Below are positions 33,249 to 62,809 of a stretch of 64,000 bases of DNA, piece by piece. This DNA is from Eukaryota sp. GEM-RC1 (taxonomy: Eukaryota). The translations under genes and the position numbers were made by a program. Below the pieces are notes generated by a model. It ran no database searches. It saw nothing but the letters and a program-made list of their open reading frames with translations, and had not been told where the DNA came from. Within the stretch, counting starts at the first letter, position 1; every line of letters begins with the position of its first letter. The stretch is from NCBI GenBank assembly GCA_040285855.1, contig JAUFOQ010000017.1, positions 1,674,001 through 1,738,000 on the forward strand, given 5' to 3'.

Positions 33249-34899
33249 CGTTTCATTGAACTTTCTTTAAGTATTGGTTCAACAATTAATTTTGATAACT
33301 GTTTTGTTGTTGTTAAGTCTTCGAATGTTTCTAATATTGGTTTTTGTAATATTCCTATCATTGATTATTCTACTCAATGTTTTCGTTTTATTGGCATATT
33401 TTTTTGGAAATTATGAGAAAATTCATTCAAAATTGGAGGGTTCATTGACTACCATTGAACAAAAACCTAATCAAATATTATCTTTAGATGTGAGTAAACA
33501 TGTTTCTTTTGCTATGCTTCAGGTCTGTTTTGCCGGGAAAATTAATCATTTTGTACGTTCATTAGACTATTCCCTTACTGAAACATTTGCCAAGAAATTC
33601 AATTCTATTAGAACAAATTTTCTCTCTAACTTGGCAGAAATTGATGAGTCTAAGATTCCATTTCATGCTTTTTATTCTTCTGAATTCGCAGGAGTAGGTT
33701 TCACCCATTCAAAAATCATTAGAAAATCTGCTCTTTTAGGAGGTGTTCAGAATTTTATGTTGGAATTTTTGAAACGGTTTCCCCCTGAATGGAATCAATC
33801 TGTTGAATTCCAGTAATTGCCGTTGGATTCAATCTGCTAAAGATTTGGTATCATCTTTGTCTCCTGAAATGTGGGAATCTTGGTTCCCTGCTCACTTAAA
33901 GGAGACTCTTTTAAACAATATTTCGTCTCTACCGTCTGCTGTATGTAAACTGCAAAATAAATTGACAAGGAGTTTGAACTCTTGGACTTTAATAATCGTA
34001 TTAGCTTGGCTAATACTAATAGTCCCGAGTTCACCGCTTCTTTAATTGACCTTTGTACTTTCCGAATTTATTTCTCAAATTCCTAAGGTGTTTGGATTAC
34101 ATCTATCTGACGAAGCTTGGATAATCAATATGCGTCTTCGTTTGGCTATTTGGCCTGCAAATTTATTAAACTATAACTTGTTCTTCTGGAGCTAATGGTG
34201 TTTTTCGTCATTTAATTAATTGTCGATATTTTATTCATCTACGTGCAGTAATTCATGATGGTGTACGTGATTCTTGCTATTCCATGTTTAAAGCACATGG
34301 TTTGCACTCTAAAGATGAACCAGTTTTGAATCATCTTTCAGAAAATGAATTTTCTGCTCAAAAAAGAGGGGAGCTCCATACTCCGTGGCTTAAATCGAGT
34401 CAATCATTAGTGGAATTTACTACAGTAGATGTTTGCAACAAATCTTGTGTTAGTAGGATATTAGATTCTTCTTTTAATCCGTTAACAGCTGGTGAAAAGC
34501 TCAAACACTCCAAGTATGACTCTCAAGTAGAAGAATTAAATAGAAACTCATATTCCAAATTTGTGTTTCAACCTTTTGCTGTTTCTCTTTTTGGATCTAT
34601 TAGTCCTGCTGGTGATCAATTTTTCAAGGATTTCGATGAACTGTGTAAAGAAAAGAAGCGTAAGTTTAGAATGGCTGAATGGAAAAACCGTATAGTGTTT
34701 TCCATATATCGGAATATGCCTTTCTATTTCTCTCGATTAATTGAGAAATTGTACAAGTTTGGTGTGAAGGTTAATGTTGAAAAACGTAATCATTTACCGG
34801 GTGGTGATGAAGTCGTTTGGCTGTAATCTTAGTATTATTTGTTTGATTTTACAATTTCATAGTTTTGTAGGAAGGTTACCTTATTGGGCACCGAATAAG
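33249..34899 (+). mobile_element. Second 5'-truncated copy of the RLE retrotransposon at 18-1690
   Basis: High identity over ORFs 33274..33816, 33803..34045 and 34284..34826 and the 3' UTR. More disruptions than the first copy. Confidence 0.85.
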
Positions 34900-35647
34900 A
34901 AAAATTTACTTCAACTCCAAGCTTCAAATGTTAGATCTTCTGGATTTTGTTCTTCACAGAATCTCAATTTGGTTAGAATTTACTAAAGATTGAGTAGTTT
35001 CAGAAAACATGACACCGTATTTCTCACTTAAGAGGCAAAATGATCAAGAGAAACATTCAAATCAAAACATATTTGATTTGTCAGTATCTTGAATACTGAA
35101 TATGATCCGCTGAAAGACGCTGAGAACTCTAAAGCATCAAAAGCTGCACATCGCATTGCTGATTAAATTTCATGAAGACAAAATCTTTAAGCAGGTCTCT
35201 TTTTGCCACGTATGATGACATGGTTTTTAGTAGCTGATATGCGTGTTTTTAGTTAAAACACGTGGTTATCCTCATAATGGGGAGCGTATAGCAGGTGTCA
35301 TCTATACTGTGTTAGAAAATCGATGGTAATTCCGACTGACAACGCTACCAATTTTTTTAATGCCATAAGCAGGTTGAATGGAGTAGACAAAGCTCCTTTT
35401 CGACAATGCACTCCGCAGCTCTCATATTCAATTGTTAATGTTGGCCTCGAAGAAGTAAGTACATGTACAGTGTTGGAGAATGTACGAGCTCTAGTAGAGT
35501 TACTTCACCAATCTCTTGGCATTCGGCAGGAACTTGAAGATCAGTTTGTCGAAATTCATTCGATGACAAATGTTATTCTCATAAAGTCAATCGAAACAGA
35601 TTGTTTTTGAATCCTCTACATGTAGTAAGTTCCTTCATTATATCGCC

Positions 35648-37612
35648 ATGACTACTTTCGTTGCCGTGAACCCCATGTACCCCGGTATCAGCTATCCGCC
35701 TCCTCCTCCTGAATATCAATCTCAGAAGAAGACGAAACTCCTTGTAGCTGGTGCTATTGCTTTAGCCCTCGTTGTTGTGCTGATTGTGGTTGTAATAGTA
35801 GTTCAACGTGGTAGAACAGATGTTTTCCAGAAGACTTCTTTCAAAATGACTGCTACAGAAGATGATGACGATGGATCTTCTACTATGACCATAATTGCCA
35901 ATTTTGACTCCAATGTCTGGATGCTCGATGTTGAAATTACTGAAGATGTTTTATCCTTTAGAATGGCATTCTTCTCCGATGGATCAAATTTTTACATTGT
36001 CAATGATGTATGCGCCCCTAAAGACCCAGAGATCCTTGAAGAAATTGGCTTTGAGTCTGTTAACAAAATGAAGGTTGATCCTGATGTTCATGAGAAAGTT
36101 GGTCAACTTGATTACCAAGATAGTAAGTGTGACCTCTACAATGTTGATCCTGCTGAGGACCTCTACGTTTGCTTGTATGATGGTTTCATTGCTATTGTAT
36201 GTGATGGTGGACTGGATTTGACAGAAAACTGCCAAGTATTTACCGATCACGAAGAACTGTCTTCTAGTGATGCCAGATTAACACTAGAACACCACTGTTC
36301 TTCAATCCAAAAGACTGCATTCAGTGCCGATTACTATGTTGCAGAAGAACTTATCTCGGCCAGTCACGTTGATATTATGAACCCTAAAATGGCAATGTAT
36401 TTAGAAGACAACCGTGTTCTCTTAACGCAAGATCATACTTATGAATTTGACTCTGAACACTGTAACGTTGGTAATCCTGACGAAGATTTAATGGTAGATC
36501 TACAATTTATGAAGATCAATTTCTTCACCAATAACACCCATGAAACTAAGGAAGTTCTAGGTCAGACTTGTACAATCTTCAGGACTGACTTCCTAGGCTG
36601 GTTCATTGTTCATCTGTGCATCCACGACGGGTTCCTTTTCGAACAATGTTGGGAAGGATATGAGTGTATACAGTTTACCAATCATCAAGAAATATCTGCT
36701 GATGATCCTGCATTTACTCCACCAGAACACTGCGAGATTCCTTAGCCTATTGACCAAGAACTTGTGTTCTCTGCTGACTCTCAAACTGATGACGGAACTA
36801 TTGAGAATGCTTTTTACAAACTTGAACATGGAATTTTGTATTATGAACATGCTGGTATCAAGAACTTCTTTGAAGACGGGTCTCATTACTCTGTTGAAGA
36901 TGCTACGTGTTCCAGTCAAGCTGATTGGGAAACTGACAACAGGGTTATGGGTATGATTGTTGACGATGATCACACGATCCTTGGCTCTGAAACAGTCAAT
37001 GGAGTTGAATGTACTAATTATGAATACCACACTTGGTTTGATACGTTGGAAACTTGTCTGTCTGAAGATGGGTTCATACTTAGACATTGTATTGACACCC
37101 AGTGCACCACCTTTTCAAAACACGAGGAAGTTAGTTCCAGTCATTCAAACTTCCAACTTCCTGAAGAATGTTCTTCTGAAGGTGTTTATCAAGAACTTTA
37201 CTTTGCTGCTACTTTGGAAAGAGAAGGGCAAACCTCCGTTGCTCATTTCAACCTTTATTCATCCCTTTTTAGGTGGGAAGAAGCTGGTGAAGAGAAATTG
37301 TTATCAGGAGGTTCTGTGTACTCCTTTGATGAATCCACTTGTGATAGTTATACTGACTGGGATGTGGAGGATTTCATCGACTATTTGGTGATTCCTTCCA
37401 GTGGTTTCCAATTTGTAGATGATGACGTGATTGGAGGAGTTTCGTGTAAACGTTATTCCTATACAGTGTTCTGGGGTGCTGATGTCACCAACTGTATCAC
37501 AGATGACGGTTTTGTTGTGGAATTATGTGAGAATTTGGAATGTTCGTATCTCACAAACCACTCAGTTATCGCTGCTGATGATCCTAAATTCGAACTTCCT
37601 GATCATTGTTAG
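35648..37612 (+). CDS. Type II membrane protein with four Cys-containing ~140-160-aa repeats (ependymin-like); internal stop codon
   Basis: N-terminal TM helix. Repeats end in (F/L)..P/E.HC. In-frame TAG at 36743-45 where the paralog reads GAG (CEIPEP). Confidence 0.7.
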
Positions 37613-38524: not shown

Positions 38525-39185
38525 TTTATTTATGGAAAAAAAAACACTAAGATAAACAAAAATACTAGAACTCAATATCATTAAAGCAACAATCATTGCC
38601 ATTAAAACTCACATCAGCTTTTTTCTTCATAAAAAACACTGAGAGCTAATAGAGCTTTTGAAATCATGATAGGAATTGTGTTAAATATTGTAAAAACAAT
38701 ATGATTCAATCAAAACTTGAAATCAAATTTCTTGTTCATTTTTTTTGACAACTTTCTCAAAATCAGAGAGAAAACAAAGAGCATCTCTAACAAGACGACC
38801 ATAAATTGAAATTGCACAAAAGGACATAAATTGTACTCAACATGTCTAATATGTTTGAGAGCAGTCAATGGTTCATCATTTTTTTTTCTCTTGTATTGTT
38901 CTGAAGAATTCAGTGGAGAAATTTCATTTCTAGCATCCTTGAAACAAGAAGATTGTCTTGACTTGGACATCGTCTACAAAATTCAAAGACAACATTCTTA
39001 CCACCACCAATGAAAGCAGATTTTGTCCACCATTTAGATGAAGTGAAACCAACACCACCAAGATGAGCATCTGAGAAGGTGTGATTGTTCATTACTGCAG
39101 GATCCACTGAAAACAAAAATGCATGAAATTTGGTACGAATTGAATTAAAGATGCTACAGAAGTTATAGGTAAGTACAGGGGTACA
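38525..39185 (-). mobile_element. Internally deleted RLE retrotransposon remnant
   Basis: HLGGVGFT..SAFIGG (RT C-terminal region) is joined directly to NEISPLNSSEQYKRKK..LCPF..KFDFKF. Confidence 0.7.
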
Positions 39186-39563: not shown

Positions 39564-42057
39564 TCAATTGATAGTACAATGATCCGGCACTGTAAATTTA
39601 GGATCATTTGCAGAAATAACTGAATGACTTGTGAGATACGAACATTCGATCTCCCCACTAGCTGAATTATCCAAGCAATATTCTAGAACAAAACCATCAT
39701 CAGATATGCAGTTGGTGATGTCATTTTCGTCATCATTTCTATAAGTATACCGTTTACATGAAACTCCTCCAATGACATCATCATCCACAAACTGGAAGTC
39801 TACAACTGGAACTCTCAAGTAGACAACAAAACTAAAAAGATCAAAAGCTGAATCTATAATGCAGATTGTCGGGTAATACTGGATTACTGCGCGGTCTTTC
39901 ACTAGTTCTTGTCTTTCGCCAACTTGTGTCCACATAAGAGATGAATCGAGGTTGAAACGAACATCAGTATAAGTTTCTCCTTCCCTTTCCAAAGTAGCAG
40001 CAAAGTAAAGTTCTTGATGGACAGGCTCAGGAATCCCGCAGTGTTCTGGTGGGGTAAATGCAGGATCATCAGCAGAAATTTCTTGATGATTGATAAACTG
40101 GACACACTCATATTCTTCCCAACATTGTTCGAAAAGGAATCCATCGTGGATGCACAGATCAACAGTGAAGTCTTCTAAATAGTCAGTCCTGAAGATTGTA
40201 CAAGTCTGACCTAGAACTTCCTTAGTTTCGTGGGTGTTTGTTGTGAAGACGGTGATCTTCATAAGTTGTATATCTAACAACCATTCGTCATCAAAGTCAT
40301 CAATATCACAGTGTTCAGAATCAAATACATAAGTATGATCTTCTAAATAAATAACGGAACTACTACCAGTATCCATAGCCATTTTAGGGTTCAAGATATC
40401 AACATGACTGCTGGATATTGGATCTTCATCAACATAGAAGTTAGCACTGAATGCAGTCTTTTGGATTGAAGAACAGTGGTGTTCAAGAGTGAATCTAGCA
40501 TCACTGGAAGAAAGTTCTTCGTGATCAGAAAATATTTGGCAGTTTTCAGTCAAATCCAGTCCACCATCACAGGCAATGGCAATGAAACCATCGTACAAGC
40601 AAACGTAGAGGTCTTCAGCAGGATCAACACTGTAGAGGTCACACTTACTATCTTGGTAATCAAGTTGACCAACTTTTTCATGAACATCAGGATCAACCTT
40701 CATTTTGTTAACAGACTCAAAGCCAATTTCTTCAAGGATCTCTGGGTCTTCAGGGGCACATACATCATTGACAATGTAAAAATTTGATCCATCGGAGACG
40801 AACGCCATTCTAAAGGAGGAATCATCTTCAGTAATTTCAACATCGAGCATCCAAACATTAGAGTCAAAATTGGCAATTATGGTCATAGTAGAAGACCCAT
40901 CGTCATCATCTTCTGTAGCAGTCATTTTGAAAGAAGTCTTCTGGAATGAAGGAGGCTCAGGAATCTCACAGTCTTCTGGTGGGGTAAACACAGGATCATC
41001 AGTAGAAACTTCTTGATGATTGGTAAACTGAATACACTCATCGGGCATACATAGTTCAATAATGAACCCATCATGGATGCACAGATCAACAGCAAGCAAC
41101 GAAAAATTAGACCTGAAGATTGTGCAAGTCTGACCTAGAACTTCCTTGGTTTCGTGGGTGTTGATTGTCAAAAAGTGAATCTTCATATGTTGGAGGTTTG
41201 ATATTAATTCTTCGTTAGTATCTCCAATACTACAGTGTTCAGAGTCAAATTGATAAGTATGATCTTGCGTTAAGAGAACATGGTTGTCTTCTAAATACAT
41301 TGCCATTTTAGGGTTCATAATATCAACGTGACTGGCCGAGATAAGTTCTTCCGCAACATAGTAATCGGCACTGAATGCAGTCTTTTGGATTGAAGAACAG
41401 TGGTGTTCTAGAGTGAATCTAGCATCACTGGAAGGAAGTTCTTCGTGATCGGTAAATATTTGGCAGTTTTCAGTCAGATTCAATCCACCATCACAGGCAA
41501 AGGCAATGAAGCCATTATACAAGCAAACGTAGAGGTGTTTAGCAGGATCAACATTGTAGAGGTCGCACTTACTACCTTGGTAATCCAGTTGGTCAACTTT
41601 CTCATGAACATCAGGGTTTACCTTCATTTTGCTTACAGACTCAAAGCCAATTTCTTCAAGGAACTCTGGATCTTCAGGGGCACATACATCATTGACAATG
41701 TAGAGAATTGATCCATCGAAGAATAATCCTCCTTGATGGACACTGAGCAGCCAAACACTCTCCGAAAAAAAAAGATCCGCAACTATGGTCATAGTAGAAG
41801 AACCATCGTCATTTTCCTCCACGGACTTCATCTTGAAAGACATTTTCTGGAAAACATCTCCTTCTCTATCATCATCTTTTCTCCTTAGGACGTTGACTAA
41901 CAACTATTACAATCAAGACCAGTAGAACTGCAATAGTTAAAGCAATCGCCCCAGCAACGATAAGTTTGATCTTCTTTGGTTTGTGGTATTCAGGACGAGC
42001 ATCAGGAAGGGGATAGCTGATCCCTGAATGCATTGGATTGGCGACGAATGTAGACAT
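39564..42057 (-). CDS. Paralogous type II membrane protein with five Cys-containing repeats
   Basis: MSTFVANPMHSGISYP...TM at 42057 joins ORF 39564..41903 via an A-run shift near 41880. Long near-identical blocks shared with 35648-37612 and an internal ~300-aa duplication. Confidence 0.75.
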
Positions 42058-42249
42058 GATGAAATCGTGAAGGCAAGTACAATAGATGAGTTTGAGTGCA
42101 AAAATCATAGTGTTATTCAAATGACTTCGTTTGACTGACAGCTGTGTCCAACACCATTTACAAAGTCTATTGCTTTAGAACTCCCGTTTCTGTCTCCTTG
42201 ACTCAGGAATTGAACATTTGTATTCATCAAGTTTTTGTTAAATTGTACT

Positions 42250-42366
42250 ACTGTGAATTTCATTCCAAATGCATAAGGGCATAACCCTTCACATTTTCAT
42301 GAGATAAACCACAGTTGACAAAGTCCTCATTCGCAAAGTCTTTTAAGACGAGCTAACTTCATAGAT
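42250..42366 (-). ncRNA. Candidate omegaRNA scaffold of the large Fanzor
   Basis: Non-coding, directly 3' of the stop. GUCU-uaaa-AGAC hairpin and a long stem AAAUGUGAAGGG-uuaug-CCCUUAUGCAUUU (42267-42296). Confidence 0.45.
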
Positions 42367-45260
42367 TCAAGATTCCTGATCTTTCTGGTTTACGTTTACG
42401 TGTGAGTCCTTGGGTACATATTTCTTAGGCTTATTTGGACAAGTTGCTCTGTTATGCCCAGGTTGAAAACATATACCACACTTGTTAGGACCTCTGACTT
42501 TTGTTAGAGGACACTTTGCCTTACCCTTACCCTTACTCACAGTCTTTTTCTTAGGAATCTGATCTGTATTCCCGCCATCCACGACAGGTGTTGTTTGAGA
42601 TTTTGGTCTCTCGAGGATGGCAGGTCTACCTTGACCTTGAATTGTTCCATTTACAATAATGTAAATATTGATAGCAGAATTGAAATCTCTATTCCAGAGG
42701 ACATGACATTTAGCACATTCAACTAAGCCCCATGGTGAGACTTTGTTGTTCTTCAATCTTTCTTTCGAAAATGTCAACTGGTCTGTCCATTCTTCATCAA
42801 AGTTACGCTCCACAATATTGTCTAATTGATTGTGTTCAATAATTTCCTTTTTTAATTCTTTTCTCTTCCTTCTGTAACTTCTTCTTCCAATTAGGATCAG
42901 TGACTTTGATCCTTTCAGGATTGGAACAGATACCTTCGTCATTTCTGGAAACACATGCAGAGCAACATTTGCTGGTCTTAAATTCATCAACTAGGAACAC
43001 TTTAAATCCAAATTTTCTCAATAATTTCCGAATTGAAGCACCTTTTACAGTCGATGCTTTACGTCTTCTTCGACGAAAAGCAGTGTCGTTCCAGTCTCCA
43101 TACCCAACAACGACTTCATCTGGGTTTCCAAACTGGAGAGTAAATCTGTGAAGCATGTTTTTCTCACTTCGTTCCTTTCTTGAATACTGTGTTAAGCGTC
43201 TACGTCTAAACCACTTTTCTTCGTAAATTCCTTCAGTATTTCTTTGATCAGTAGTGGGTGATCGTAATAAAGAACAGGTAATTTCTTTACCAAGAACAAA
43301 AGCAGAATACTGAGTCAATTCACAAGATTTACTACCTGGCGAGTTAGAGCCCCATTGATCTAAAATTTGTTGCCCATTTATGTCAATGCGTCTGCCATCT
43401 GGAATGTGAATAAATTGGGTAGAGTATTGTTGTAACCGTTCAGATTCAGATAAACGGTGGAGATTATATCGTCTTATTTTCTTCTCCAGCTTCCTCTTCT
43501 TTCTCTTAGCTCTTTTTCTTTCCTTCCTTGTTTTTTTCTTTTCCATGGAGACTTTTTAATATCGGCATTGCGCTCCCCAGCAGTGTATCTGAATACTTTC
43601 CAATCATCACGATTTTTCAACTTGACAGTTGATGGTTTGTCAATAGTAGGTGCGTCTTTCCAATCCTTCAATTCCTTTTTTAATTTTTTCAAGCTTCCTT
43701 TTTTCTTTGATGATTTTGGAGAAATCTTTCTTCTTCTGATTTTGGCTGATGTATCGAAACCTTCGATTTCCTTTTCCTCCTTAGATTTTAAAGAAGCACA
43801 ATACATCAAATCATGCTGATTAGGATCAATAGCAACAATTCTTTTGGATTTCAAATTTAAGTTTTGAATTTCTGTGGAACTCAAAGAATCAATGTACCTT
43901 TCAGTAGCTGTGTAGTCAACTGCTTTCACCTTCTTATGAGGATTTCCTCTCCCATCAAGCAGATCTTTCCGCATCATCATTAAATTACAGCTAACTCCAT
44001 CTGTAGAAATAGAACTGTTTTTGAAGTCATGAGACAATGACTTTGGAAGACACTTTGGTTTCAAAACTGAGTGCCAAATATCTTTTCGAACGTCATCAAA
44101 GCTACCTTTCATTTCTGATGCATAAACTTCTTTAAACCATGTAGTATCCAATCTGATATGATTAGGAATCAGTGATTTTGTTAGAGGAAAAGGATTATTG
44201 GCAGTAACACCAGGACAAGAGTCCTCAACAAGACGTTTCAAATACACTGCATGACTTAAGAATTTCAAAGGATCTACTTTTTCAGCATAATAGATTGTTT
44301 TCTCCATTTTACCTTCAAAAAAAGTAAACAAATAGTTAAAAAATAGTAAACTCAGTCTAGAATTGGGATCAGGAAACACTTCAACATCTTGAAAATTAAT
44401 TTTTGAAATTTCCCCATTAATGATCAACTGTCTGACTTCATTAAGCTTTGTACACAACTCTTGTCGTAGATTCTTATCAGTAAGCTTGTTAAGTCTATCT
44501 TTTTCAGGGTAACCAAATTAAATACTTGAAAAACATATTCATGAAAGTGATCACTCATGTTAGTCTTGTAATTCGTTATAATTTCAGTAGCCATGTAATG
44601 CAATATACGAGATAAACGATGACTACTGGGAAACACAATCCTATCAAGTCCAACAGATCGAGCAGCTATTTCTAAACGAGGAATATAATACATCAAGAAG
44701 TGTTGAGCAAACTGATTTTGAGTTGAGCCATCATTTGTGTTAGAAATTATGTTTTCTAAAGATTCTTGCACAGTCTCAATATGATTCTGATTGTTTACAA
44801 GTTTGTTGTCCCTAATCGTCATCATAGACAACACTTGTTCCATTGATTTCAACGTAAAAAAATTCTTCCAGTCTGGCAATTCAATTTTGGCAGTTTGAAT
44901 TTTAGTCCAAAGGTCAGGTTCAGGTTTAGGTTCATCACTCGCATCTTCAATATTTTCTAATTTAATAGGAGGAGTAGCAGCATGGATAGACTCTGAATGT
45001 ACATCTGTTTCTTCATCAGTTGACTCATCTGTATCAGAATTCATTTCTTCCTTAACAGTTACATTTGGAACAGTAGCAGGCAGTAACTTCTGAATGTAAC
45101 CTATAATACCTGAATGGTGAAAATTATGAACAAAAAATGTTTCAAAAAGAGAGTACTACGGACTCTTACTTGGTGAGCTCTCTTAACACGAGATTCAATA
45201 AATTTAACCTTCGCTTTGGACACAACATTGTCTAGTCGTTTCTTAACCACTTTCATTGGT
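42367..45260 (-). CDS. Fz1: Large Fanzor1 nuclease region of the polyprotein
   Basis: KVVKKRLDNVV..RVKRAHQV..STLFLK N-terminus, PNHIRLDT, ISTDGVSC, RuvC-I IVAIDPNQHDL, FRYT, FGNP..VVGYGDW, RuvC-II LVDEFKTSKCCSAC, CAKC..RuvC-III WNRDFNSAINI, GRP; then CGICFQPGHNRATC. Confidence 0.9.
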
Positions 45261-48200
45261 GACTTTGAACGTAATGTTTGTTTTTTGGGATCCAATAGGT
45301 CAGCCAACAAGTACTCAATCAGAGGTAATTGTTGAATTGAGTTCATCAACAATAGCGGTCTTGTCGATTCCTTGGCCCAAAGTTCATTTACTTTCTCCAA
45401 ATTTCTTACAAATTTCTTTTTAATCTTATCGACCTTCACTTTGGGATTGTCTGGAACTAAAACATTAATACTGTCAATTATGCCATGCAAGTTTTGGACA
45501 TTATTGACCAATTGAACTTCATCAGGATCAGAGTCATGATTAAGTTCTTCCAAGCGTTTGACAGTTTCATTTTTAGAAAAATTATTCATTTCAAGAAAAA
45601 TTTGAACAACATTTTCCAAAAAACGGCCACCAGTAAAGACATAAAAATTCTTCAGTACAGCATTCAAATCGAGACTAAAAAACGGACCAAAAGTTGTTTC
45701 CTTACACCATTTGTTGAACCAAAAGGGAATGTAGGGTTTAAATTCTGGAAAAGTAAACGTTGTATTGATTTTGAGGACTTGACAACGTGATACAAGAAAG
45801 GGAAATGTATCTAAGTGAAAGTCATAACTCACAAACAATCGTGGACAATGTTGAGTAATGAAGGAAATGAAGTTTTTAAGCATACTGGATTCACTATCTG
45901 AAATATGTAAGGTACACAAATCCAAGTTTGTAGTATCAAAGTTGCCATGAGAAAATAAATGTTTTTCATTAAACTCATTGTGATCAATGATCTCGATGGA
46001 AATTGATACAATAGGATCAACAGAAGAATCACGTTTAACTTCTAATTGATCTTCAGCTTCACCTTCAACAGTTTCAATGTCATCATCATCTTCTTGAACA
46101 AGTTGAACATTTCTGCCATTAATTCTTTCTTTTTGGCAAAATCACTTTGAACATGAATTAAACAAAAAGTTGGTAGATTGTTCCAAAGTAGAGGGGATTT
46201 AAGAAAGTCTTGAATTTGTATTTCTTCTTCTATAGGCTCAGTGTGTAGATTTACTTCCATTTTTTGGATTTCTTCTTGAATTGGCGATGGATACGACATA
46301 ATGGAGGCCTTAATTTTGGGTGGTAGTTCAGATGGTGGTACTTCAGATGATTCCAATGTGGACATACGGCGGTGAGTCTTTCGTATTGGAGTGTCACCAG
46401 TTGAAACAAGGGAGCTGGTAGTTCTAAATTTATTTCGTTGAATTAAAGGTGAACCTCGTGGTGATGGAATATCAGAAATTTTGGCCTTTCTTTTTTTAGT
46501 GCTTAAACCAGTAGATGCTTTAGTGCTAGCAAGACGCTTACCTGAGATTGGTGACGCAGAAACACGCGACAACTCAACAGGACTAAAAGTTTCAAAATGT
46601 TCCAAAATTTTACTTCGAGACTCGTGAACAGCAATAGTGGTATTACCCAGCAGTTCTTTAACATCAGTCCACCTTATGACCACAGATTGATCTAAATTCA
46701 TTAAAAGATCAATGTATTCGAGAACACAAAAACCAGAGTCAGTTAGAGTATGTTTGATATTTGATGGAATAAATTCTATATTTCTGGTTTCACACATTGA
46801 CAACACTGAATAAATTTTTGACACAATTGTAAATAAATTGGAGGAAGATGGTGCAACTGGCATTTGGTTAGCAGGAAATTCTCTGGCATAATCATCCTCA
46901 ACGTAGGTCGGATCAATGAATAAAATATGACTTGTAGGAGATGAAATGATCAGAATAATTAAACCCCAATGACGACCATCAGCAGTAAGATCACACATTG
47001 CACTATTGACAGGAACAAGTAGCATTTGTTGGTTGTTTTGACCACATTGGAAGAATTTCTGCGTCAAAAAATCTGAAAATGGATATTTATTATAGGGTTG
47101 GTCACCATATAATAACGGATATAAATCAGTTGGCCCAATTACATAGTCATAAAAGATTAAACCTGTTGATTCCACAAGTATTTTGGAATATTTGATGAAC
47201 AATTGATCGTCAACATAAGTAAACAATTTTTGAATCTGTTTACGGAGATCTGCAGCATTAAGTTCAATGTTAACTTGGATTAAAGCACGTTCAATAGAGA
47301 TCAAAGATAGATTGATGCCATCCCTTGAAATGAGTTCAACAAATTTTTGAATATAACCAATAACATAAATACCACAGTCATTAGGAGTCTGTGTCTTGGT
47401 GATGTTGACCCTCTGTACGTTCAATGTTACTTTCCTACATAATTCATCTACAACAGAACTTAGATAAGAAGAACCGACAATTGGATCCACAAATATCGCG
47501 TTGTTTTCCGCACAGTCTATTACCATTAGACCCCAATGAACTCCTCCAGATCCACCTGTTGTATTCATAGCATCGTTGAGAGGAACAGCGAAGTATCTGG
47601 TGCTTCTCTCCCGGGCGTCATCAATCTTATTTTGGCAGTATCCATCAGTTAAAAAATCTGACCACATCTCATCTGGAGCAATGAAATAGCATTCCCAATC
47701 AAGGTTTGCTTCTTTGAATTGGTGTTTTGAGTATTCAGAAAGGGCGTAATCATCTATCCATTGGCCAGGATTCAGATACTCTAGGGAGTCTTTGGACAAC
47801 GGTCCGGGATTGGATTCCACGTCACCATCCATGGTGAGATCTTCTTTGAATGGGGGACGGGAGGAGAAAACTGTACAAGAGAGGTCTAAAACACTTCGCG
47901 AGGAAGAACCACACACGGCATAGCTCTTGTTTTTAAGTATGTGTGTGTAGTTCATTGGAGGGGAATTGACACGGAGGGGAGAAACTGTACCATCAGCGAG
48001 AGAAGAACCACACACGGCATAGCTCTTGTTTTTAAGTATGTGTGTGTAGTTCATTGGAGGGGAATTGACACGGAGGTGAGAAACTGTACCATCAGCGAGA
48101 GAAGAACCACACACGGCATAGCTCTTGTTTTTAAGTATGTGTGTGTAGTTCATTGGAGGGGAATTGACACGGAGGTGAGAAACTGTACCATCAGCGAGAG

Positions 48201-48450
48201 AAGAACCACACACGGCATAGCTCTTGTTTTTAAGTATGTGTGTGTAGTTCATTGGAGGGGAATTGACACGGAGGGGAGAAACTGTACCATCAGCGAGAGA
48301 AGAACCACACAGGGCATAGCTCTTGTTTTTAAGTATGTGTGTGTAGTTCATTGGAGGGGAATTGACACGGAGGTGAGAAACTGTACCATCAGCGAGAGAA
48401 GAACCACACACGGCATAGCTCTTGTTTTTAAGTATGTGTGTGTAGTTCAT
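42367..48450 (-). CDS. Polyprotein (~2000 aa, reconstructed): repeat leader, 2A, Ulp1/SENP8-like protease x2, linker, Fanzor1, CCHC zinc knuckle
   Basis: Six ORFs chain through homopolymer shifts near 46130, 45135, 44500, 43550 and 42850. Bridging frames are stop-free (KERINGRNVQLVQEDDDD...; FVHNFHHSGIIG...; KDRLNKLTDKNLRQELCTK). Confidence 0.8.
46690..47797 (-). other. Tandem Ulp1/SENP8-like (C48) cysteine-protease domains
   Basis: Domain 1: LNPGQWIDD, VPLND..GGVHWGLMV, FVDP, QTPNDCGIYV. Domain 2: VPVN..GRHWGLII, FIDP, TDSGFCV. Confidence 0.85.
47800..47844 (-). other. 2A ribosomal-skipping (StopGo) peptide EDLTMDGDVESNPG/P
   Basis: Exact D(V/I)ExNPGP consensus, in frame, immediately before the protease domain. 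Confidence 0.9.
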
Positions 48451-48474
48451 TGGAGGGGAATTGACACGGAGGGG
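47903..48474. repeat. 99-bp tandem repeat, ~5.8 copies, coding (33-aa unit)
   Basis: MNYTHILKNKSYAVCGSSLADGTVS(H/P)LRVNSPP repeated with only single-base variants. Confidence 0.95.
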
Positions 48475-48895
48475 GAGAGCGAGAGGACCTCATCCCGCTA
48501 AACATGTATGCGAGAGTAATGATGAAGAGTATCTGTAAACTGATCTGGACTACAGTTGACTTTTTGCGACATCTTCAATTTGACAATACACCTGACATAC
48601 ATTCAATTTATTTTAACGACATGTGATGAACGAATAATTCTAATGACATCATGTATACACAAACATAGTACTGTACTGTATGGATTGAAACAAACCAACA
48701 TTGATGTCAATTTACTAACCTACAGTATGTTAAAAGTTATAAAGACTGCATGTAAGATTTATCTAAGTACTGTGAGTAGTGATAACAATAGATGTACATA
48801 TAAATAAGATCAAGTAAGTCACTGTCTGAGGTGTAGAATTAACCATAAAAACTAAGAACGAAAAAATTTATAAAGAACGAAAAAATGAATAAAGA

Positions 48896-51800
48896 CTATT
48901 CCCTCATTTTGTATTCCACATCTGTAAGATTTTGCCTCAAAAACGCGTGGAAAGTATTCCACTTTTTGCTTCGGGGTTGGTCGTTATCCATGATAACAAA
49001 CAGTGCGTTTTCAGTTCTTTGTTGAATAAAAGGAAATGTTGATGGCGTATCTGGAAGATCAATAATAATTGATATCTGACACCTAAATTCGGAAAATTTT
49101 TCCAAAATTCCCCAATTAGCAAACAATACCGAGTTTGGTTTCGTGTTGAACTGGTTCATTGTGAAATTATAAGCACTTTGAGTGACAGGTTTGGTTTTGC
49201 TACTGGCAAATTGGAGGGCATTAATGGTACCGTTCTTGGTTTCTTCACTAAACAAACTGCGATACGTCAGTACATCTTGTCTAGATTTAAACAATACAGC
49301 AATTTTTTCATGGGGTAACTTCCTTGTTTGGAGGATACCATGTAATAACCTTTTCAAAATTGAACTGATATCCGCAAATTTGCAATGAACAAGGTTGAAC
49401 TTTTTTCCTTTCAGTCGAATAGGAGGTCCTTCAGCTGGTGATAGTTTGTTTGGGTGGGATGATTTATCCAAACTTCTACAATATGATTGGAAATCAATTT
49501 GTTCCAAAGTTGTATCACCACCTGAACGACACAAAGTCATCACTTCTCCTGACACATCAACAATTCCAATTGTCATTGAAGTATGAGAAAAAATAGTTGA
49601 CATGGCTCTTGTATGCCCGTAGATAAACAAAATGAGATTTCTTTTTGTTTTGCACTTATACCTATACACGTTCCATCATTAGTGATACACAAAAATAATT
49701 CAAATGCTTCAATGAAAATACAGTCTACCAGACTAATTTTCTCACTTGTAGGGTAAAAATCATAGACAGATTCAAGACAGTGTATGACATTGCTTTCCCC
49801 ATCAGTTCTTATGAGATCTACGGATGACTCGCTTAAAACCAAAACAAAACCTTCTTTGTAAGCATGAAGTTTGGTGAAGAGCTTTCTTGGTCTATCTTTT
49901 GGTTCACGTTGCAAGTCAGCATGAAATTGAATATCTGTCACACTGACGGTGTAATCAGTAATGTAAATGAAACTGTCACATAAGGTTACAATATCCTTTA
50001 ATCCTGTTGTTTGACTAGTTAAAGTCCGCCTGACTCCAGACATTTCAAGTTCGTATATAAACTTTTCCGTCATTACCAAGCATCCCCTAAAATAGTGACC
50101 AGGCAAAAATATTGCAACAATTCTTTCATCAAGTTGGTGTTGCGTATATTTTCCATTTTCGGTACCATTTTCTACGCTGTCTTCATAAGATGACTCATTG
50201 TATAAAGGTAGATTAAGGAGTTTAATCATTGACTCTTTAACATAAATAACAAATAATCCATCAGACGAAACGTCAAATGGACTATCACTATTGATTTTGT
50301 TCAAAATTGAACTGGATTTGTGATCTGTAAGATCAAGAATCATAAGATAGTATGAGCCATTGAGAAGACAACGAGCAACAATTTGAGTTGTCGCCGGTAT
50401 AATTACACACTGTTGAACGACAAGTTGTACAAAGGTAAATTTACCAGCTATGTTAGGTACAGGTCTTTGAAAACAAATTTTTGAGCCTTCCATGACGCAA
50501 TAGGTTCTGTACTATACAAAGCAGTAGAAGAAGTAGTAAAAGCAGTAGTAGAAGTAGTAGTAGGAGCAAGAGTAGTAGAAGCAGTAGGAGCAAGAGTAGT
50601 AGAAGCAGTAGAAATAGTGGAAGCAGTAGAAATAGTAGGAGGAACTGTATCTTGCCAATACAATGTAATAATAGATCCTTTTCCAGTAACAAAATAAATT
50701 TCTGGCTTTTTGAGAGAAGGAAAAATTTTGATAATACCTGCATCCCAGTTTCGTTTAAAACGATCATTAAAAAAAGACAGGAGCGGCTCGATTATCAGTA
50801 TTAAAGAAACCAATACGATTCTTTCTAGTCACAAAAATGATGACTTTGGGATGACCATATATTCCACATGCATCAACAATACAATCATATGGCTTAGGTC
50901 CTTCCAACCACCCCTGTGGTCTTAACAGAAAATCTACTTTGATTTGAGATTTTGAAACCGTCACAATATGTAACGTTAACCATTTAGTTTTAACGGTTTC
51001 ATCTAACCGAAATGGTACACTACCAGCAGCATCATAGTCGGATGCGTCCACATCAATAATTGTTCCAGTAGGTTTCATGGGGGACGATTTAATGGCCTGA
51101 ATCTGATAGAACAAACGAGTAGGATCCATTTGTAATCTTTCACACAAATAAACACCTAATCTACATCGATTCAGGCAACCAATCATTGATACTAAAGGTT
51201 TCAGAACAGAATCATCGTATTCATAGCATATTTCCGACTTATGCGCAATATCAAATGATACCATTTGTGTGGTAATACATCCGTAGCTGAACACACGAAC
51301 ATACATCAATTGTAAAAATAAGTTGGACAAAGTACGTTCAAAATAACAGCACAAAGTTGGAAGTGCCTGTTGCGGAGTCACATATACACCTGACCATTGA
51401 TCACATTTATCGACAGGTAATCGAGTGAAAAGAGAGTTGTAGAATTTGAGATCAATACGACCACTATGACCGTTCAGAGTACTGTACTTAATAGGACTTT
51501 GATAGTAGTAATTTGAGGCTCTTAAACGCACATTAACGGAGAATGTTTTTTCTTTACATAGTAGACCAAAATTTAACAAATCTGCAACATTTACACCGGC
51601 ACTGTTACTGGAGTACCATTGATTAGTTTTGAAGAATACTGAGGGATAGGGGTGTATATTCAATTTGGGGAAAAACGGATGGGGTAATTTAGATGATGAA
51701 GAATTTTCAATCATTTTGGCCAAAATAAGTGAAATAACTCTGTTATTTTTACAATTACTCGCTGTAAGTTCGATTTCCTTGTCGGATTCAACAGAAAGTT

Positions 51801-54800
51801 CTAATTTAACAGCATTTGTGTCCCGCTGTCGCTGTTTTGAAGACTCCAATAAACTATTCAATTTTGTTATCTTTGCGTTTAATTCATCAACAGAAACACT
51901 TTCAAATAACGTCTTTTCAAATGGTTCAACAGGCAGCTGAGTTGAAGATCCTTGTAATGCCATGTCTTGTTGCATACTTCGAAACATTATTGAATTTTTC
52001 GGGTAAGACGACGCAAACAACAAAGTCAATTGTGAAAAATCGAAATTAGATGGAACAAGTGTTTGATAAAAAGATTGATCCTTAAAATCACTCCATTCTT
52101 TTTGATTTAGATCCTGTTTCCTCTCTTTTTCATGTTTATGTCCTGTATGGGCCATTTTGTACCCTTGTAATAAAGATTGGACCTGTTTGGCTTTAGCTTC
52201 TAACGAATCAAAGGTTTTGGACAATCGATTCAATTTGGATTGGAAGGTTTCACCCATACTTGATACACTACGCTTAATAACACTCAATTTGGACAGCAAT
52301 CTATCGCACCAAAACTTCAACTTCCTAAGGTCAAAATATTGTAAAATCTTCCAATTGATTGTACCGGATAACAAGGCACATAAAAATTTGAACATCATAT
52401 TCAGGTCTGAAAATCCGTGATCCGTTCCATCATCATACAAATTTAGAAAATTTCCTAGTTTTTCAACTTGGTTGATGTATTCTGTGTTGAACTTGAAGTT
52501 AAACAAATTGAAATTGAATGAACATAAAAGAATTAATCCGGCAACAACTTGATCTTGAACAAAACAATTGAATACAAAATGAAAATGTTCATGAGAATCA
52601 GCAAGAAGTGATCCCAAAAGTCCCATAGACGTCAGTTTGTCATTGATAAAACGACTCTCAAGGATATTATTCAGGTAGAGGGAGTAAACTGTTTCGTTTA
52701 CTGAAAAATCAGAAACGATAGTAGGCATGGCATTCAGAAAATCATTTGGATGAGATGAAATTTGTTTAACTTTCAAAATACAATCTTCCAATGGTGAATC
52801 TAGAATTTGTGGATCTTTTGTCGGAGACCTTGAGTACTGACCAATAAAATTAAAGTCAAATAATCTAATACAGATCCCAGGTCTTGTCCGTCCGACTCTT
52901 CCAGCACGTTGAGTAGCAGAGCATTGTGAAATGTGTGCCATAACCAATTCTTTTCTGAAATTTGGAACTCTTTCTAACCCAGTATCCAAAACAATTACTG
53001 CCGAGTCGATCGTGATTGATGACTCTGCGATGTTAGTTGCAGCAACAATCTTGAATTCATTGTTTTTACACTTGCTTGCTGCCTTGAGTTGATCCTCTCT
53101 GCTGATCTCAGAATACAAAGGATAACAACAGTTCATAGGCAAATCATTATTGTGATAACATGCTTTAACCAGACTTTCTACTTCAAAAGAACCAGGTAAA
53201 AAAACAATTAATGTTATACCTGGAACATCTGACTGTCTTGTATGAAGTTTTGTTAGTACAAAGTATTTGACAACAATTTTGTAAATAACAATTATCAATT
53301 GCAGGAGTGCGTCTGAGTTAATAATCGACGGGTGAAGTCTCTGATCTACTTTAGATTCAAAGTGTTTTTTATAATTTACCACTTCTGCACGAAAATCATG
53401 TTGATGATCACAGACAGCTTCTCGAAATCGAGGGGGAAATCCTTCAGTAAGTTTTGAATACCAGTCATTAGTTTCGAAATTCTTAAAGTCGAAAACGTTC
53501 AGGACTCTTGAGAATTGACCAGTGTCAAACATAAGGTTTTGTTGTTCTTTAAGTAAATCAGTCTCTGTCCATTGATTATCAGGGAGCAAAGTGTTTAAAA
53601 ACTGGGTTAAGTTCAGCAGTTGTTGATCCAATAGTTGCGGATGACAAACCACGTATAATGCCCGAGTTTTTTAAATTAATTTTCATTACTGTGAGTAACA
53701 GATCGACATCTATAGTTCTGTCATGAACTTCATCCACAATGACGACTTTGTAAGTAGAAACAAATGAATGCTGATTCATCAACAACATGAGAGTTAAACC
53801 AGTTGTTTGATAATGAACCAAAGTATTGTCTGAAAAATTGTATACCCCACCACCACAGTGATATCCAGCAATGGGGTAATCGTAAATAAATTTACTACCC
53901 AGTCGAGGTCTAGTTAAGGAGTTAAGAAATTCAGACAAAAAGATTGCCGAAGGTACCGTTGGTTGGGAAACAATGACTTTGCTAAAAAAAGTAAGCGCAA
54001 AAATAACAGGTGACAGTGTAGATTTTCCTGATCCAGTTGAACCAGTGATCATATAGGGTAAATCATAACTCCGATCAGAATTACAATAACACTTGATTAA
54101 ATGCTTTAATAGTTCAGTAAAACTATTCCTTCCAGTAGAAGTCGAGACAAAGGACAATTTATGATCTCGTTGAGCATGAAATAGAACATTCATCAAACTA
54201 GACAATGCGAAATGGTCTACATTGTGTCTACTAGCATATTGTTTCCAGTGAGTGATGATAATTGGAGTAATTTGAGTAATAAGGTCGCATTTTAAATCCA
54301 TCAGCTCAGTCATAAGATCATCGAAATTAGTATCATGACGGTTTACCTCAATTGGTTCAATAGCATCAACAGCATGAACATCAAGGAGAATTTCGGTAAG
54401 ATCTTCGGGTGTTTCTTCAACATCTTGTAATAAATCAATAACTTTGGCTTTCTCTGTCTTATATTTCAAAGCATCTTTAATTGCTTGTTCAACAACTTCT
54501 TCATGTGTTGTTCCATTGAATATATAGCTAATGAAAACAAATGGGAAGTTCATTAGATTTACAAAGGGTTCAAAACAATTTTCAAATTCTGAAGTGGAAA
54601 TAATGTAACTTTGATAACCTAGCATAAATACCAACAAATAAATTGAAGAAATTTGTTGATTTCGGTAATTCTCTTGATCAGTTTCATTTGAAAATAAATA
54701 TGTCTTGGCAAAGACATAAAAGCGATAGAGTGATCGAAAAATCCAGGTATCTTGTAACTTTGCATCAACATTGAGTAATCGGGAAGCATAGTTTTCAATT

Positions 54801-56158
54801 CTTACAGACATATCAATAGATGTATTATTAAAATCCTGTACTTGTTCATATTCATCAGCTTCGTCAGTTGTTTGTTCTGAAAGAACAGCTTGGCCATCGG
54901 CAGCTTCAGCATATTCTACAATTTCATTGAGTAGTTTTTCCAAGTAATTTTTGTTAAAATGTTTTGGTGGGGTCAGATCTCGCAGCCAAGTTTTTACTTC
55001 TCTTGCTGAATCAACTGTGAATGGGGAAAGAGAATCTGGCGTTGGAAAGGTATCTTTAAAAAATTTAGATCTTTGCAAATACTGATGACACAGTGTTAGT
55101 GCTATCGTCAACATTGTTGTTAACGAAAGACAACAGGCAGGATTTACAACGCGAATGAATTTCGAGAAATCAAGAGTATGAGCGGTTAAACAGCATTGGA
55201 CGGGCCTGGTCGAATCATGCTGTTGTGGAAGTATACCAGGCTGTCGGGGGAGCATACATTGATTACAAATGGCGTAACTTGAACATTGTTTATCAATTGT
55301 CAAACGTTTTTGTGCAGAAAATTGTAGAAGTTGTTGCGATGGTAAAACTTTCAGGGACGGCAAGTCAATGGAGGTGAAAACTTCATTATGATATTCTAGA
55401 AACTCAACAAAAACATGATCGACTTCTGGGGCAATCAGAGATTCAAAGAAGGATGTAATGTAATCATAAATATTTTTAACAGAAAGTCTTTTCATTGGTA
55501 GATCAAAATGAGCAAGAGCATTGTCTAGTTGAGACTTACATTCAGTAAAAGAAATGGGATCACGATCAGTCATTGCTTCTGGAACAGACTGTGAAGCATT
55601 CAGGTGATAGTGTTCCAAGCAAGTACATATACGATGTCCTGTAATGTTCTTCACAGGATGGATTACAGACTCATGTGAAATAAATGCACAGCCTGAGTGA
55701 GCGGAGGGTGGAAATGGACCGGGATTTGACTCTACATCACCGTCCATTGTGAGATTTCTTAACCAACTATGGGATGGAGAGGCATTAGATTCAGTAACAC
55801 GTACAAAACAACAATAGTTCAAGGCATGACTCTTCTTTACGAGCATGTTATCCCTATATGTTGTATTGGGGGAAGGGGGCGTAGAAAGAGAGGACTTCGC
55901 TTCAACAACGGGAGGAGAACAACAACAACAATAGTTCAAGGCATGACTCTTCTTTACGAGCATGTTATCCCTATATGTTGTATTGGGGGAAGGGGGCGTA
56001 GAAAGAGAGGACTTCGCTTCAACAACGGGAGGAGAACAACAACAACAATAGTTCAAGGCATGACTCTTCTTTACGAGCATGTTATCCCTATATGTTGTAT
56101 TGGGGGAAGAGAATGGCATTTTGAAACGATGGGGAAGATATATCCGGAGCAATTTCAT
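48896..56158 (-). CDS. Polyprotein (~2400 aa, reconstructed): repeat leader, 2A, unknown region, DEAH-box RNA helicase, T/S/A linker, beta-rich region, degenerate helicase-C-like domain
   Basis: GSTGSGKST, SQPT, TTG, DEVHDR, SSAT, VFLPG, ATNIAESSITID, QRAGRVGR. Five ORFs chain through shifts near 53590, 50770, 50480 and 49590. First ATG at ~56119. Confidence 0.8.
50520..50645 (-). repeat. Low-complexity Thr/Ser/Ala coding repeat
   Basis: TISTASTISTASTTLAPTASTTLAPTTTSTTAFTTSSTA. Confidence 0.8.
55715..55765 (-). other. 2A ribosomal-skipping peptide WLRNLTMDGDVESNPG/P
   Basis: Exact consensus, in frame, ~15 codons after the repeat leader. Confidence 0.9.
55808..56109. repeat. 117-bp tandem repeat, ~2.6 copies, coding (39-aa unit)
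   Basis: acaatagttc recurs at 55811, 55928 and 56045. Unit SPNTTYRDNMLVKKSHALNYCCCCSPPVVEAKSSLSTPP. Confidence 0.95.
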
Positions 56159-56845
56159 TTGATGTTGATCTTGATGCTTCTGACTTCACTTCACCACCTT
56201 GGATTTTACATCACCTTAAAAACACTTCTTTAACACGTTATCCCCATGGATGTTTACGTCTGTCTAACGTAATTCATGCTTACTTGGAGTTCATCATGTG
56301 TTGTTCTGGATGAGATCCATGACTTTTTTTTGAGTTTCCACCTTCATTTACTGTACTCTTGGTCAAAATCGAATCGTATTTGCGGTTTTTAATGATGAGA
56401 TATTTATGTAATGTTGGCTTCACAATAAAATATGAAATAGATAGTTACAGTTGAAAACATCCTATACATTTATAAAAATAGAATATAATTCACCATATGG
56501 CTTATGAGTCGTTATGATGCCGTTGCCGTGACGGATATGCACCTAAACCCACCACGATCTGATGATGTTGTAGTAGATCAAATGCGCAAATCAACTTTCT
56601 CCAATTACACACGAATCCAGGAATTTCAACAGGTTGTCAACAACCACCAGACATCTCTTCTCACTTTTTTTCACTATATGGTCAAAAAATCTTTATTGTA
56701 TATGATGGTTTCTTTCATGTACATAATGAAGGGAAGATATATCTAAAGTTCAAAAGGATTCTTCGTAAAATTGGATTTTTGACAAGAGACTTAAGAGGAG
56801 GGAGTGGAGTCGAAGTAATCTCAGTTGTTCCAGTTGATTCTGATT

Positions 56846-57415
56846 CTAAGTCATTGCTTGAGTTACTTGATTCTTCTTTTCATTCAATAAGTTTTCTTCT
56901 CTAACTGCCTTTGGAGATTTAGACTTTTTCATCTTAGAAAGTCTTGCAGAACATGAAACTTTTTGATGTTGTTCATGTTCTGCAAGATCAGACAAGTCTA
57001 TTGCTGAGTCACTTTGATCTTGAATCAAAATATTATATAAATTTTGAGAGGACAAGGAAGTAGTGGTACCATTCTTTTCTTCAAGAATATGAGTTTCTTT
57101 GTTAATAAAGAATTCAATGTTTTCCTTAAGATTATCACCAACAACATTTTTAAACCATGTTGTATTGTTGGTGGACACTGCGATATGAGAAGTACTATCA
57201 GCAGCTCGGGTGATTAAGATATAATCTCCATTAATTCCGAGATTGCAAGGTGAAGTTGAAGGAGTTGATTTTGTCTCAGTAAAAGAAAAGACATTGTATA
57301 CATCTTGGTGTTTAGATGCATACTTCCTCTGATAAGCAGAAAGACGACGTTTCCGAGACAGAACGTTTGTTGATGAGTTCATGCAAATTTTGCCGGGAAA
57401 CAAATTCTCCTTCAT
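56846..57415 (-). CDS. Hypothetical protein (strand uncertain)
   Basis: 189-aa ORF with no motif. A frameshifted plus-strand reading from 56504 is an alternative. Confidence 0.25.
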   Translation of the reverse strand: MKENLFPGKICMNSSTNVLSRKRRLSAYQRKYASKHQDVYNVFSFTETKSTPSTSPCNLGINGDYILITRAADSTSHIAVSTNNTTWFKNVVGDNLKENIEFFINKETHILEEKNGTTTSLSSQNLYNILIQDQSDSAIDLSDLAEHEQHQKVSCSARLSKMKKSKSPKAVREENLLNEKKNQVTQAMT

Positions 57416-58207: not shown

Positions 58208-58460
58208 AAATCTTGTAAAACACATGTTGTATTACAAATGTTGTGTTACAGATCTTGTGTTACACATCTTGTAAAACACATCTTGTATTACACATCTTGT
58301 GTTACAAATGTTGTAAAACACATCTTGTGTTACACATCTTGTGTTACAAATGTTGTATTACACATCTTGTGTTACAAATGTTGTGTTACAAATGTTGCAT
58401 TACAGATCTTGTAAAACACATCTTGTGTTACAGATCTTGTGAAACACATCCAGTCTTGTA
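58208..58460. repeat. 14-bp minisatellite
   Basis: Variants of cacatcttgtgtta / caaatgttgtatta / cacatcttgtaaaa. Confidence 0.9.
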
Positions 58461-61745: not shown

Positions 61746-61764
61746 TTTTGATAGTTTCATTTTG

Positions 61765-62345: not shown

Positions 62346-62809
62346 TGTAGTTATAACTTGGTGTCTTTGTGTCTTCTGATGAATGAAGCTTCATGGACTT
62401 GATGTCGTTGACCTTAGTCTCATTCCAGATAGCATCTGATAGAATTGAAAAATGCAGTCAAAAATGACTGAAGACACAGCAGTGTATTACACGATCAGAG
62501 TTGTAGCAAACCAGCAGAGTTGTAGCAAACCTTAGTGTTTTCCTTTGGAGGATAAGATGTCAATGTGATGTATGTGTAGTAGGATGGTTCTAGTTGCACA
62601 ACGTTGAGTTTATTCATGACATGGTTGAACACAGTTCACAAGTCTAAGAACGAACACCTGCAAACACGTCTCTATCTTGAAAGAAGCTCAACACTGGATA
62701 TCAAACGATGTATGGAATCCATCAAAGAAGGTATAAGTGAATCAGTTTGGGGATATGTGGTTATGGGGTGAAGAGTTTTTGGGGTAAAATGATTTTGGGG
62801 AGTATGCAC

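Follow-up and report, generated by a model that had tools for sequence, protein, structure and literature searches.

Fanzor1 proteins are recognized by a RuvC triad arranged as D-X(125,275)-[TS]-[TS]-XX-C4 finger-X(5,50)-RD (PMC3627910), and the RNA-guided cutting considered below is assigned to the present gene by analogy to Fanzor1 (PMC10432273, PMC10530073). Anti-silencing proteins of plant Mutator-like elements (MULEs) carry a Ulp1 domain whose function is stated as unknown (PMC13317346), and a 2A peptide near the start of mobile-element open reading frames (ORFs) is known from non-long-terminal-repeat (non-LTR) retrotransposons (PMC3708506). We analyzed a window of 64,000 nucleotides from Eukaryota sp. 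GEM-RC1 (contig JAUFOQ010000017.1 of assembly GCA_040285855.1, positions 1,674,001 to 1,738,000 of the forward strand), in which a chain of six overlapping ORFs runs on the minus strand from 48489 to 42367. The chain belongs to a dispersed multi-copy family, and we consider it reasonably likely that this copy encodes a single polyprotein of ~1,810 residues and that the breaks between its ORFs are uncorrected homopolymer sequencing errors. The likely order of this polyprotein is a Ulp1-type protease, a second protease predicted to be dead, a family-B DNA polymerase (PolB) exonuclease also predicted to be dead, a Fanzor1 and a CCHC zinc knuckle. The features of the chain are as follows, in the direction of reading.

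47898..48474, minus strand: 99-nucleotide repeat, 5.8 copies, in frame and stop-free ahead of the 2A, with an ATG in each unit
47800..47841, minus strand: predicted 2A (StopGo) peptide ending DVESNPG/P, with the motif at 47800-47823
47230..47802, minus strand: Ulp1/C48 (CE-clan) protease domain 1 (Pfam PF02902, E=3.5e-6, above cut-off)
46585..47229, minus strand: second protease-like domain, with His and Asp kept and Cys changed to Ser (46729-46746)
46170..46584, minus strand: S/K/P-rich linker, with a probable join of protease module and core near 46507-46536
45300..46167, minus strand: family-B DNA polymerase 3'-5' exonuclease domain (PF03104, E=1.2e-7)
42600..45256, minus strand: Fanzor1 with acidic and basic insertions (matches to Fanzor1 structures in the PDB)
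43819..43830, minus strand: RuvC I, IDPN (motif)
42980..42991, minus strand: RuvC II, VDEF (motif)
42953..42964 and 42706..42717, minus strand: C4 zinc finger, two CxxC pairs (motif)
42682..42693, minus strand: RuvC III, NRDF (motif)
42439..42480, minus strand: CCHC zinc knuckle, C-x2-C-x4-H-x4-C (zf-CCHC_2, E=0.003, below cut-off)

An earlier note on this DNA had described an S/K/P-rich and acidic linker between proteases and Fanzor. The S/K/P-rich part stands at 46170..46584, but the stretch also contains the PolB exonuclease domain, the family's constant partner, which that reading missed, and the start of the Fanzor. The Fanzor begins at ~45256, immediately behind the exonuclease, with which it shares an ORF piece, and the acidic stretch is an insertion within the Fanzor. 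The PF03104 match of the window copy lies in 45104-46141, and PF03104 scores above cut-off in the window, in the relatives P0016 and P0063, and in the relative P0082 (E=5.1e-13 in the last). PDB searches with the window domain returned archaeal PolB and Pol delta. Alignment and a motif table indicate that the window domain lacks the acidic residues of ExoI, ExoII and ExoIII; the ExoII Asp aligns with Thr, and the strand aligned with the D-x-E of P0082 is 46144-46167. The domain is therefore predicted to be dead, with only its fold remaining, and the catalytic residues are lost in the three subfamilies of named relatives as well. In P0082, ExoI D-x-E, ExoII N..D and ExoIII Y..D are all present. 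A search of the ESM Atlas with residues 270-560 of P0082 returned PolB-exonuclease clusters, and one with the whole protein gave no usable match. A DDIET string near 46070 was considered as ExoI and ruled out, as it is not conserved.

Many relatives labelled Eukaryota sp. GEM-RC1 were found, in three subfamilies with ~93-98%, 45-68% and 30-45% identity, together with one labelled Eukaryota sp. TZLM1-RC (41% identity), and the named family proteins are dispersed over 12 contigs of one protist assembly. P0082, which was found by searching 1.84 billion representatives with the RuvC-II piece, is an unbroken ORF of 1,473 residues that comprises a 2A, an S/P/K-rich linker, an intact PolB exonuclease and a complete Fanzor1, without protease and without CCHC knuckle. 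It thus offers a continuous ORF with all three RuvC motifs, whereas the window copy has four breaks within its Fanzor. Of the 150 matches listed for the RuvC-II piece, P0082 alone carries a 2A or an intact ExoII motif; a Ulp1 motif was seen in none of them. In a tree of 57 RuvC segments, built by quick search and including no labelled Fanzor2 reference, the window copy, P0082 and six relatives group together with a Shimodaira-Hasegawa-like approximate likelihood ratio (SH-aLRT) of 100. Because of the content of P0082 and this grouping, we regard 2A, exonuclease and Fanzor as the constant part of the family. No related loci were confirmed in JGI metagenomes, searched with the window RuvC-II piece and P0082, or in IMG/VR, searched with P0082. 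An AlphaFold model of P0063 made without an alignment had a predicted local distance difference test score (pLDDT) of 32.5 and was not used.

For the Fanzor itself, the claim that all three RuvC acidic residues and both CxxC pairs are present was borne out, with every motif located. The RuvC-II region matched the Fanzor1 structures of S. punctatus (E=4e-5) and P. parasitica (E=9e-5), which were the only Fanzor-type matches in the PDB and place the gene nearer to Fanzor1 than to Fanzor2 or TnpB, and Pfam returned weak TnpB-type zinc-finger matches for the Fanzor part. All elements of the published Fanzor1 motif are present in order; the first spacer is ~283 residues by coordinates, which an insertion puts slightly above the published range. 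The CCHC knuckle was likewise found at the end of the chain, as had been claimed, although its Pfam match is weak; it also occurs in P0075, P0028 and P0080.

The proteases follow a different pattern. In domain 1, the catalytic motifs are intact and in order, with His at 47530-47544, Asp at 47482-47493 and Gln/Cys at 47371-47394, and its best PDB matches are CE-clan effector proteases (E=9e-8). Of the two protease domains proposed earlier, this one, which also matches Peptidase_C48, holds up as such. The second is homologous to it (27% over 109 residues, E=4e-9) but has no Pfam match and carries His in place of the oxyanion Gln; because its catalytic Cys is replaced by Ser, it is probably inactive. 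The PLND..HW segment may resemble SENP8. Ulp1/C48 domains number zero in P0082, one in 12 close copies and two in the window copy, and the single protease of the 12 close copies is intact and ~40% identical to domain 1 of the window. The same domain 2 is present in P0009, of the second subfamily. Because domain 2 is shared with P0009 while the exonuclease and Fanzor of the window copy belong to the first, the window copy is likely a mosaic joined near 46507-46536. Taken together, the protease is real but accessory and variable, and the exonuclease is the constant partner of the Fanzor. A deSUMO/deNEDDylase accessory role for protease 1 seems plausible, and more likely than self-processing.

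Reading these domains as one protein depends on five frame breaks, all on the minus strand.

46130..46134, minus strand: frame break 1, A5 run; read through by 11 of the 12 close paralogs that cover it and shared by the other
45132..45137, minus strand: frame break 2, T6 run, inside the N-terminal part of the Fanzor
44500..44504, minus strand: frame break 3, A5 run; read through by 5 of 9 close paralogs and shared by the other 4
43531..43537, minus strand: frame break 4, A7 run, between RuvC-I and RuvC-II
42859..42862, minus strand: frame break 5, A4 run, one extra base relative to P0075

The joins are one base short at four sites and one base extra at one. Between the breaks, a path of 5.4 kb contains zero in-frame stops over ~1,810 codons, and the read-through product from the 2A proline to the stop codon at 42367 is 1,812 residues, a figure obtained by counting. 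Each of the five ORF overlaps has a homopolymer run of at least 5 bases, as the earlier note had claimed in placing a break in each run, but the last break is positioned by the paralog P0075 at the 4-base run 42859-42862 and not at the 6-base run. In random stretches of the same lengths, the chance of such a run is 0.30-0.69 per overlap and ~0.02 for all five. Since runs are common by chance, the joins rest on relatives and not on runs. The close subfamily comprises 44 proteins assigned by identity (93-98%), of which those covering each join were tallied. Besides the counts listed above, 8 of 12 close paralogs give colinear read-through at break 2 (of the rest, 1 shares the break, 2 skip the site and 1 stops before it). 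This break, given as 45135 in the earlier note, lies inside the Fanzor and not in a linker. At break 5, one of two close paralogs reads through and the other breaks at an adjacent run. Other copies break at different runs, including runs that are intact in the window. Of 7 proteins of the second subfamily, 5 lose the frame at one A-run, which the other 2 read through. After the A7 break, window and P0075 differ at 3 of 97 and 12 of 161 residues. The idea of a short intron at break 4 was dropped because second-subfamily proteins conserve the amino-acid sequence of this segment. Nanopore R9.4 reads, corrected with short reads, underlie the assembly of the named relatives (PMC11316075). The window looks eukaryotic, and across it 17 ORF pairs are split over overlapping frames, 5 of them in the Fanzor chain; some of those outside it could be introns. 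Because there is no nonsense codon in ~1,810 codons and the copies break at varied runs, we judge it quite probable that the breaks reflect runs systematically under-called in a repeat beyond the reach of polishing, and that the gene is a single ORF here.

Several observations weigh against this reading. The continuous frame proposed earlier finds read-through in close relatives at four joins, but at 43531-43537 none of 19 close copies among the matches listed reads through, and the off-frame tail of the window is identical in 15 of the 19, with 4 ending otherwise. This tally was reached via clusters of upstream-piece representatives, with 15 of 18 members of one cluster listed, such that a read-through copy could be missed. 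The break at join 4 may be genomic, either recoded or dead, and this takes most of the remaining probability. The large Fanzor1-protease-knuckle fusion has relatives at four joins and an unbroken distant relative for the 2A-exonuclease-Fanzor part on its side, but no protein among those seen spans protease to RuvC-III, and the evidence of relatives at the joins consists of predicted proteins. Intact catalytic exonuclease motifs were seen in one protein only, P0082. Homopolymer indels arise in genuinely decaying copies too. Finally, searches for terminal inverted repeats and target-site duplications gave nothing above chance, and no guide RNA or element end is established.

One alternative is that the subfamily is dead or non-autonomous, with some of the breaks real, the Fanzor no longer whole and spread occurring passively via a helper. 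We consider this unlikely. The exonuclease and protease domain 2 have indeed lost their catalytic residues, all 44 close proteins examined fall short of full length, and the adjoining helicase gene is broken too; against this, no in-frame nonsense codon interrupts the ~1,810 codons, the RuvC and zinc-finger residues are all kept with few differences from P0075 after the A7 run, and the breaks are single-base and located at runs. It is quite unlikely that four breaks are errors while the A7 break is real in the genome and bypassed through -1 ribosomal frameshifting or polymerase slippage, in which case the gene would yield chiefly a nuclease-less protease-exonuclease-REC-RuvC-I protein and little full-length Fanzor. 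X XXY YYZ is a slippery pattern, which the site fits as A AAA AAA in the zero frame, and the absence of read-through and the tail common to 15 copies are as this alternative predicts. However, no downstream stimulatory structure was detected (z=+0.3; z=-0.4), 10 of 10 distant relatives checked read past this position in frame, P0052 appears to have a still shorter run, as under-calling predicts, and no run of at least 8 occurs elsewhere in the window copy.

The earlier note had also suggested a self-processing fusion, in which protease 1 would cut the chain to free the Fanzor, as in a virus. CE-clan proteases of some DNA viruses do mature polyproteins, and the 2A-led polyprotein layout and long flexible linker would suit such a scheme. 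This proposal is disfavoured, and very unlikely in our estimate: self-processing is unlikely to be required because P0082 has the same core without a protease, and inspection of the linker by eye revealed no conserved cleavage motif. That the protease and the Fanzor belong to two neighbouring genes, fused only on paper by reading through the breaks, is highly improbable and largely refuted, for although no single protein covers the whole chain, P0016 runs unbroken from 2A through protease and exonuclease to the REC part of the Fanzor, P0036 and P0046 span exonuclease to RuvC-I, and P0063 spans exonuclease to zinc finger.

The single-ORF reading extends upstream into a 5' cassette. The 2A that had been placed at the start of the chain was recovered at 47800-47823, in frame with both the upstream and downstream ORF; its consensus, D(V/I)ExNPG/P, has 2 matches in the window against 0.01 expected, and a 2A-type motif was found in 11 close paralogs and P0082. 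Ahead of it, each 99-nucleotide unit holds a hairpin of 4 bp, a 3' bulge, 3 bp and an 8-nucleotide A-rich loop (e.g., 47919-47941). Close paralogs have different in-frame repeat leaders, and we infer that a repeated cis-element encodes a variable leader, from which the 2A frees the protein. The adjoining upstream gene (48896-56185, minus strand) is a DExH-helicase-like polyprotein (Helicase_C) with its own 2A; it is broken at four places and is preceded by 2.6 in-frame 117-nucleotide repeats (55803-56109). The 99- and 117-nucleotide units are homologous (score 108, reached by 0 of 300 shuffles) and fold into the same small sense-strand hairpin, in which all pairs are kept with one compensatory change between units. 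With 3 distinct rows, covariation of this hairpin is not significant, its level being attained in 169 of 500 shuffles. The helicase gene may belong to the same modular element system as the Fanzor gene.

At the 3' end of the chain, two folds were considered as guide-RNA scaffolds on the basis of fold stability.

42560..42650, minus strand: candidate guide-RNA scaffold 1, a long hairpin just after RuvC-III, inside the ORF
42245..42366, minus strand: candidate guide-RNA scaffold 2, two stem-loops right after the stop codon

The first is the most stable of 98 windows across the element (z=-3.4, or z=-4.4 after choosing its limits), and the second has z=-2.6, with 2 of 200 shuffles as stable. Either could be a guide scaffold. 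Rfam over 41500-57000 gave two chance-level matches only, none at the candidate scaffolds, and the 3' region has no match of at least 14 nucleotides elsewhere in the window that might serve as a guide target. The flanks contain no direct or inverted repeat longer than shuffles give. Pfam detected neither transposase families nor reverse transcriptase in the ORF chain, and no poly(A) is present in the 3' flank. The locus therefore shows neither the transposase, terminal inverted repeats and target-site duplication of a cut-and-paste DNA transposon nor the reverse transcriptase and 3' tail of a non-LTR retrotransposon.

Under the single-polyprotein reading, ribosomes would start in the repeat-encoded leader, which the 2A would free, such that the protein begins at the 2A proline. 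Bound to a guide RNA that the 3' end of the element itself provides, the Fanzor would cut DNA, thereby favouring persistence or spread of the element. Pol delta proofreading removes short 3' tails during break repair, and the ancestral fused exonuclease, intact in P0082, may have trimmed 3' ends at the cut, with only its fold left here. The protease would be a swappable passenger, dispensable for maturation of the nuclease, that counters silencing by removing SUMO or NEDD8 from chromatin or repair proteins in the vicinity of the target; the Ulp1-bearing anti-silencing proteins of plant MULEs (PMC13317346) offer a precedent. An element without transposase would move with a helper or by break-repair copying. 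A more ambitious and unlikely proposal is that these are transposase-free elements that spread by cutting, trimming and copying, whereby the RNA-guided Fanzor opens a target, the captured proofreading domain trims the 3' end and repair copies the element. A portable 5' cassette of tandem hairpins and 2A would then allow the exchange of enzyme modules placed ahead of this core, among them SUMO/NEDD8 proteases and helicases.

Other genes and repeats are present in the window. A second, compact Fanzor/TnpB-like gene at 23656-25484 (minus strand) consists of two overlapping ORFs with a TNB zinc finger (E=1.8e-5); it was considered as a member of the fused family and rejected, with no significant similarity. 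A Pif1-like helicase gene at 59212-61745 (PF05970, E=2e-24) has three breaks and is flanked by arrays of the same 14-nucleotide repeat (58220-58450 and 61758-62065), and 58220-62065 is possibly another mobile element. Repeated ORF fragments lie at 221-1748, 26963-27373, 33271-34826 and 38710-38973; four pieces were scanned without a Pfam match, and we presume that they resemble CRE/SLACS-type non-LTR retrotransposons in their C-terminal part. An inverted pair of genes for paralogous repeat proteins, cysteine-rich and membrane-anchored, lies at 35585-37612 (plus strand) and 39564-42174 (minus strand), the plus-strand copy having an in-frame stop at 36745 where the other has a sense codon. A short element at 62808-63495 is rich in GACTTGA/TCAAGTC repeats, carries related blocks at its two ends and resembles a small transposon of the non-autonomous kind.

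In the literature searched, subscription papers aside, no title or abstract opening among the papers listed describes a Fanzor fused to Ulp1, a protease, an exonuclease or a 2A. The passages available from four Fanzor papers contain no protease or exonuclease fusion, and the supplement text of three contains no Ulp1, C48, PolB or exonuclease entry, although fig. S1B of Jiang 2023, on domain architectures, may bear on this point. The available parts of PMC6338049, PMC12338488, PMC10288648 and bioRxiv 10.64898/2026.06.03.729735 hold no precedent either. The exonuclease-Fanzor fusion is the robust novelty, the architecture is real and unusual, and the family is mobile-looking. The role of Fanzors for their elements is an open question, for which this clade offers exonuclease on or off and protease on or off on one scaffold. 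A DNA-end-processing domain has been kept fused to the nuclease across members ~30% identical and then inactivated in some lineages, and the clade has also acquired a deconjugating protease. P0082, with all catalytic residues of both nucleases in an unbroken frame, is a candidate natural RNA-guided cut-and-trim enzyme and, if this is true, would be the first natural nuclease-exonuclease Fanzor with both activities. The cassette of repeats and 2A that the Fanzor and helicase genes have in common suggests that a modular gene system of wider extent exists in this protist lineage.

Compared with the known systems, the gene is nearest in its core to Fanzor1 (SpuFz1, P. parasitica; Bao and Jurka 2013, PMC3627910; Saito 2023, PMC10432273; Jiang 2023, PMC10530073), with which it shares the split RuvC D/E/D, the C4 finger, the GDW motif and a multi-copy distribution. 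Unlike Fanzor1, it is ~3 times longer, with an N-terminal 2A, protease and PolB exonuclease and a C-terminal CCHC knuckle, and no terminal inverted repeats were found. With the proofreading domain of family-B polymerases (Pol delta, archaeal PolB), the family shares PF03104 and the ExoI/II/III order, and P0082 also the acidic residues; here, however, a Fanzor follows the exonuclease in place of the polymerase domain. Kaonashi / VANC-Ulp1 of plant non-TIR Mutator-like elements (PMC13317346) also combine a captured Ulp1 with sequence-specific DNA targeting, but their targeting is protein-based and accompanied by a transposase, whereas here it would be RNA-guided with no transposase present. The non-LTR retrotransposons that bear a 2A (L1Tc, Ingi, CR1, L2, Rex1; PMC3708506) likewise have it near the N-terminus of a long ORF; the present gene differs from them in having no reverse transcriptase, apurinic/apyrimidinic (AP) endonuclease or poly(A) tail, and in a repeat leader that it has in common with the helicase gene.

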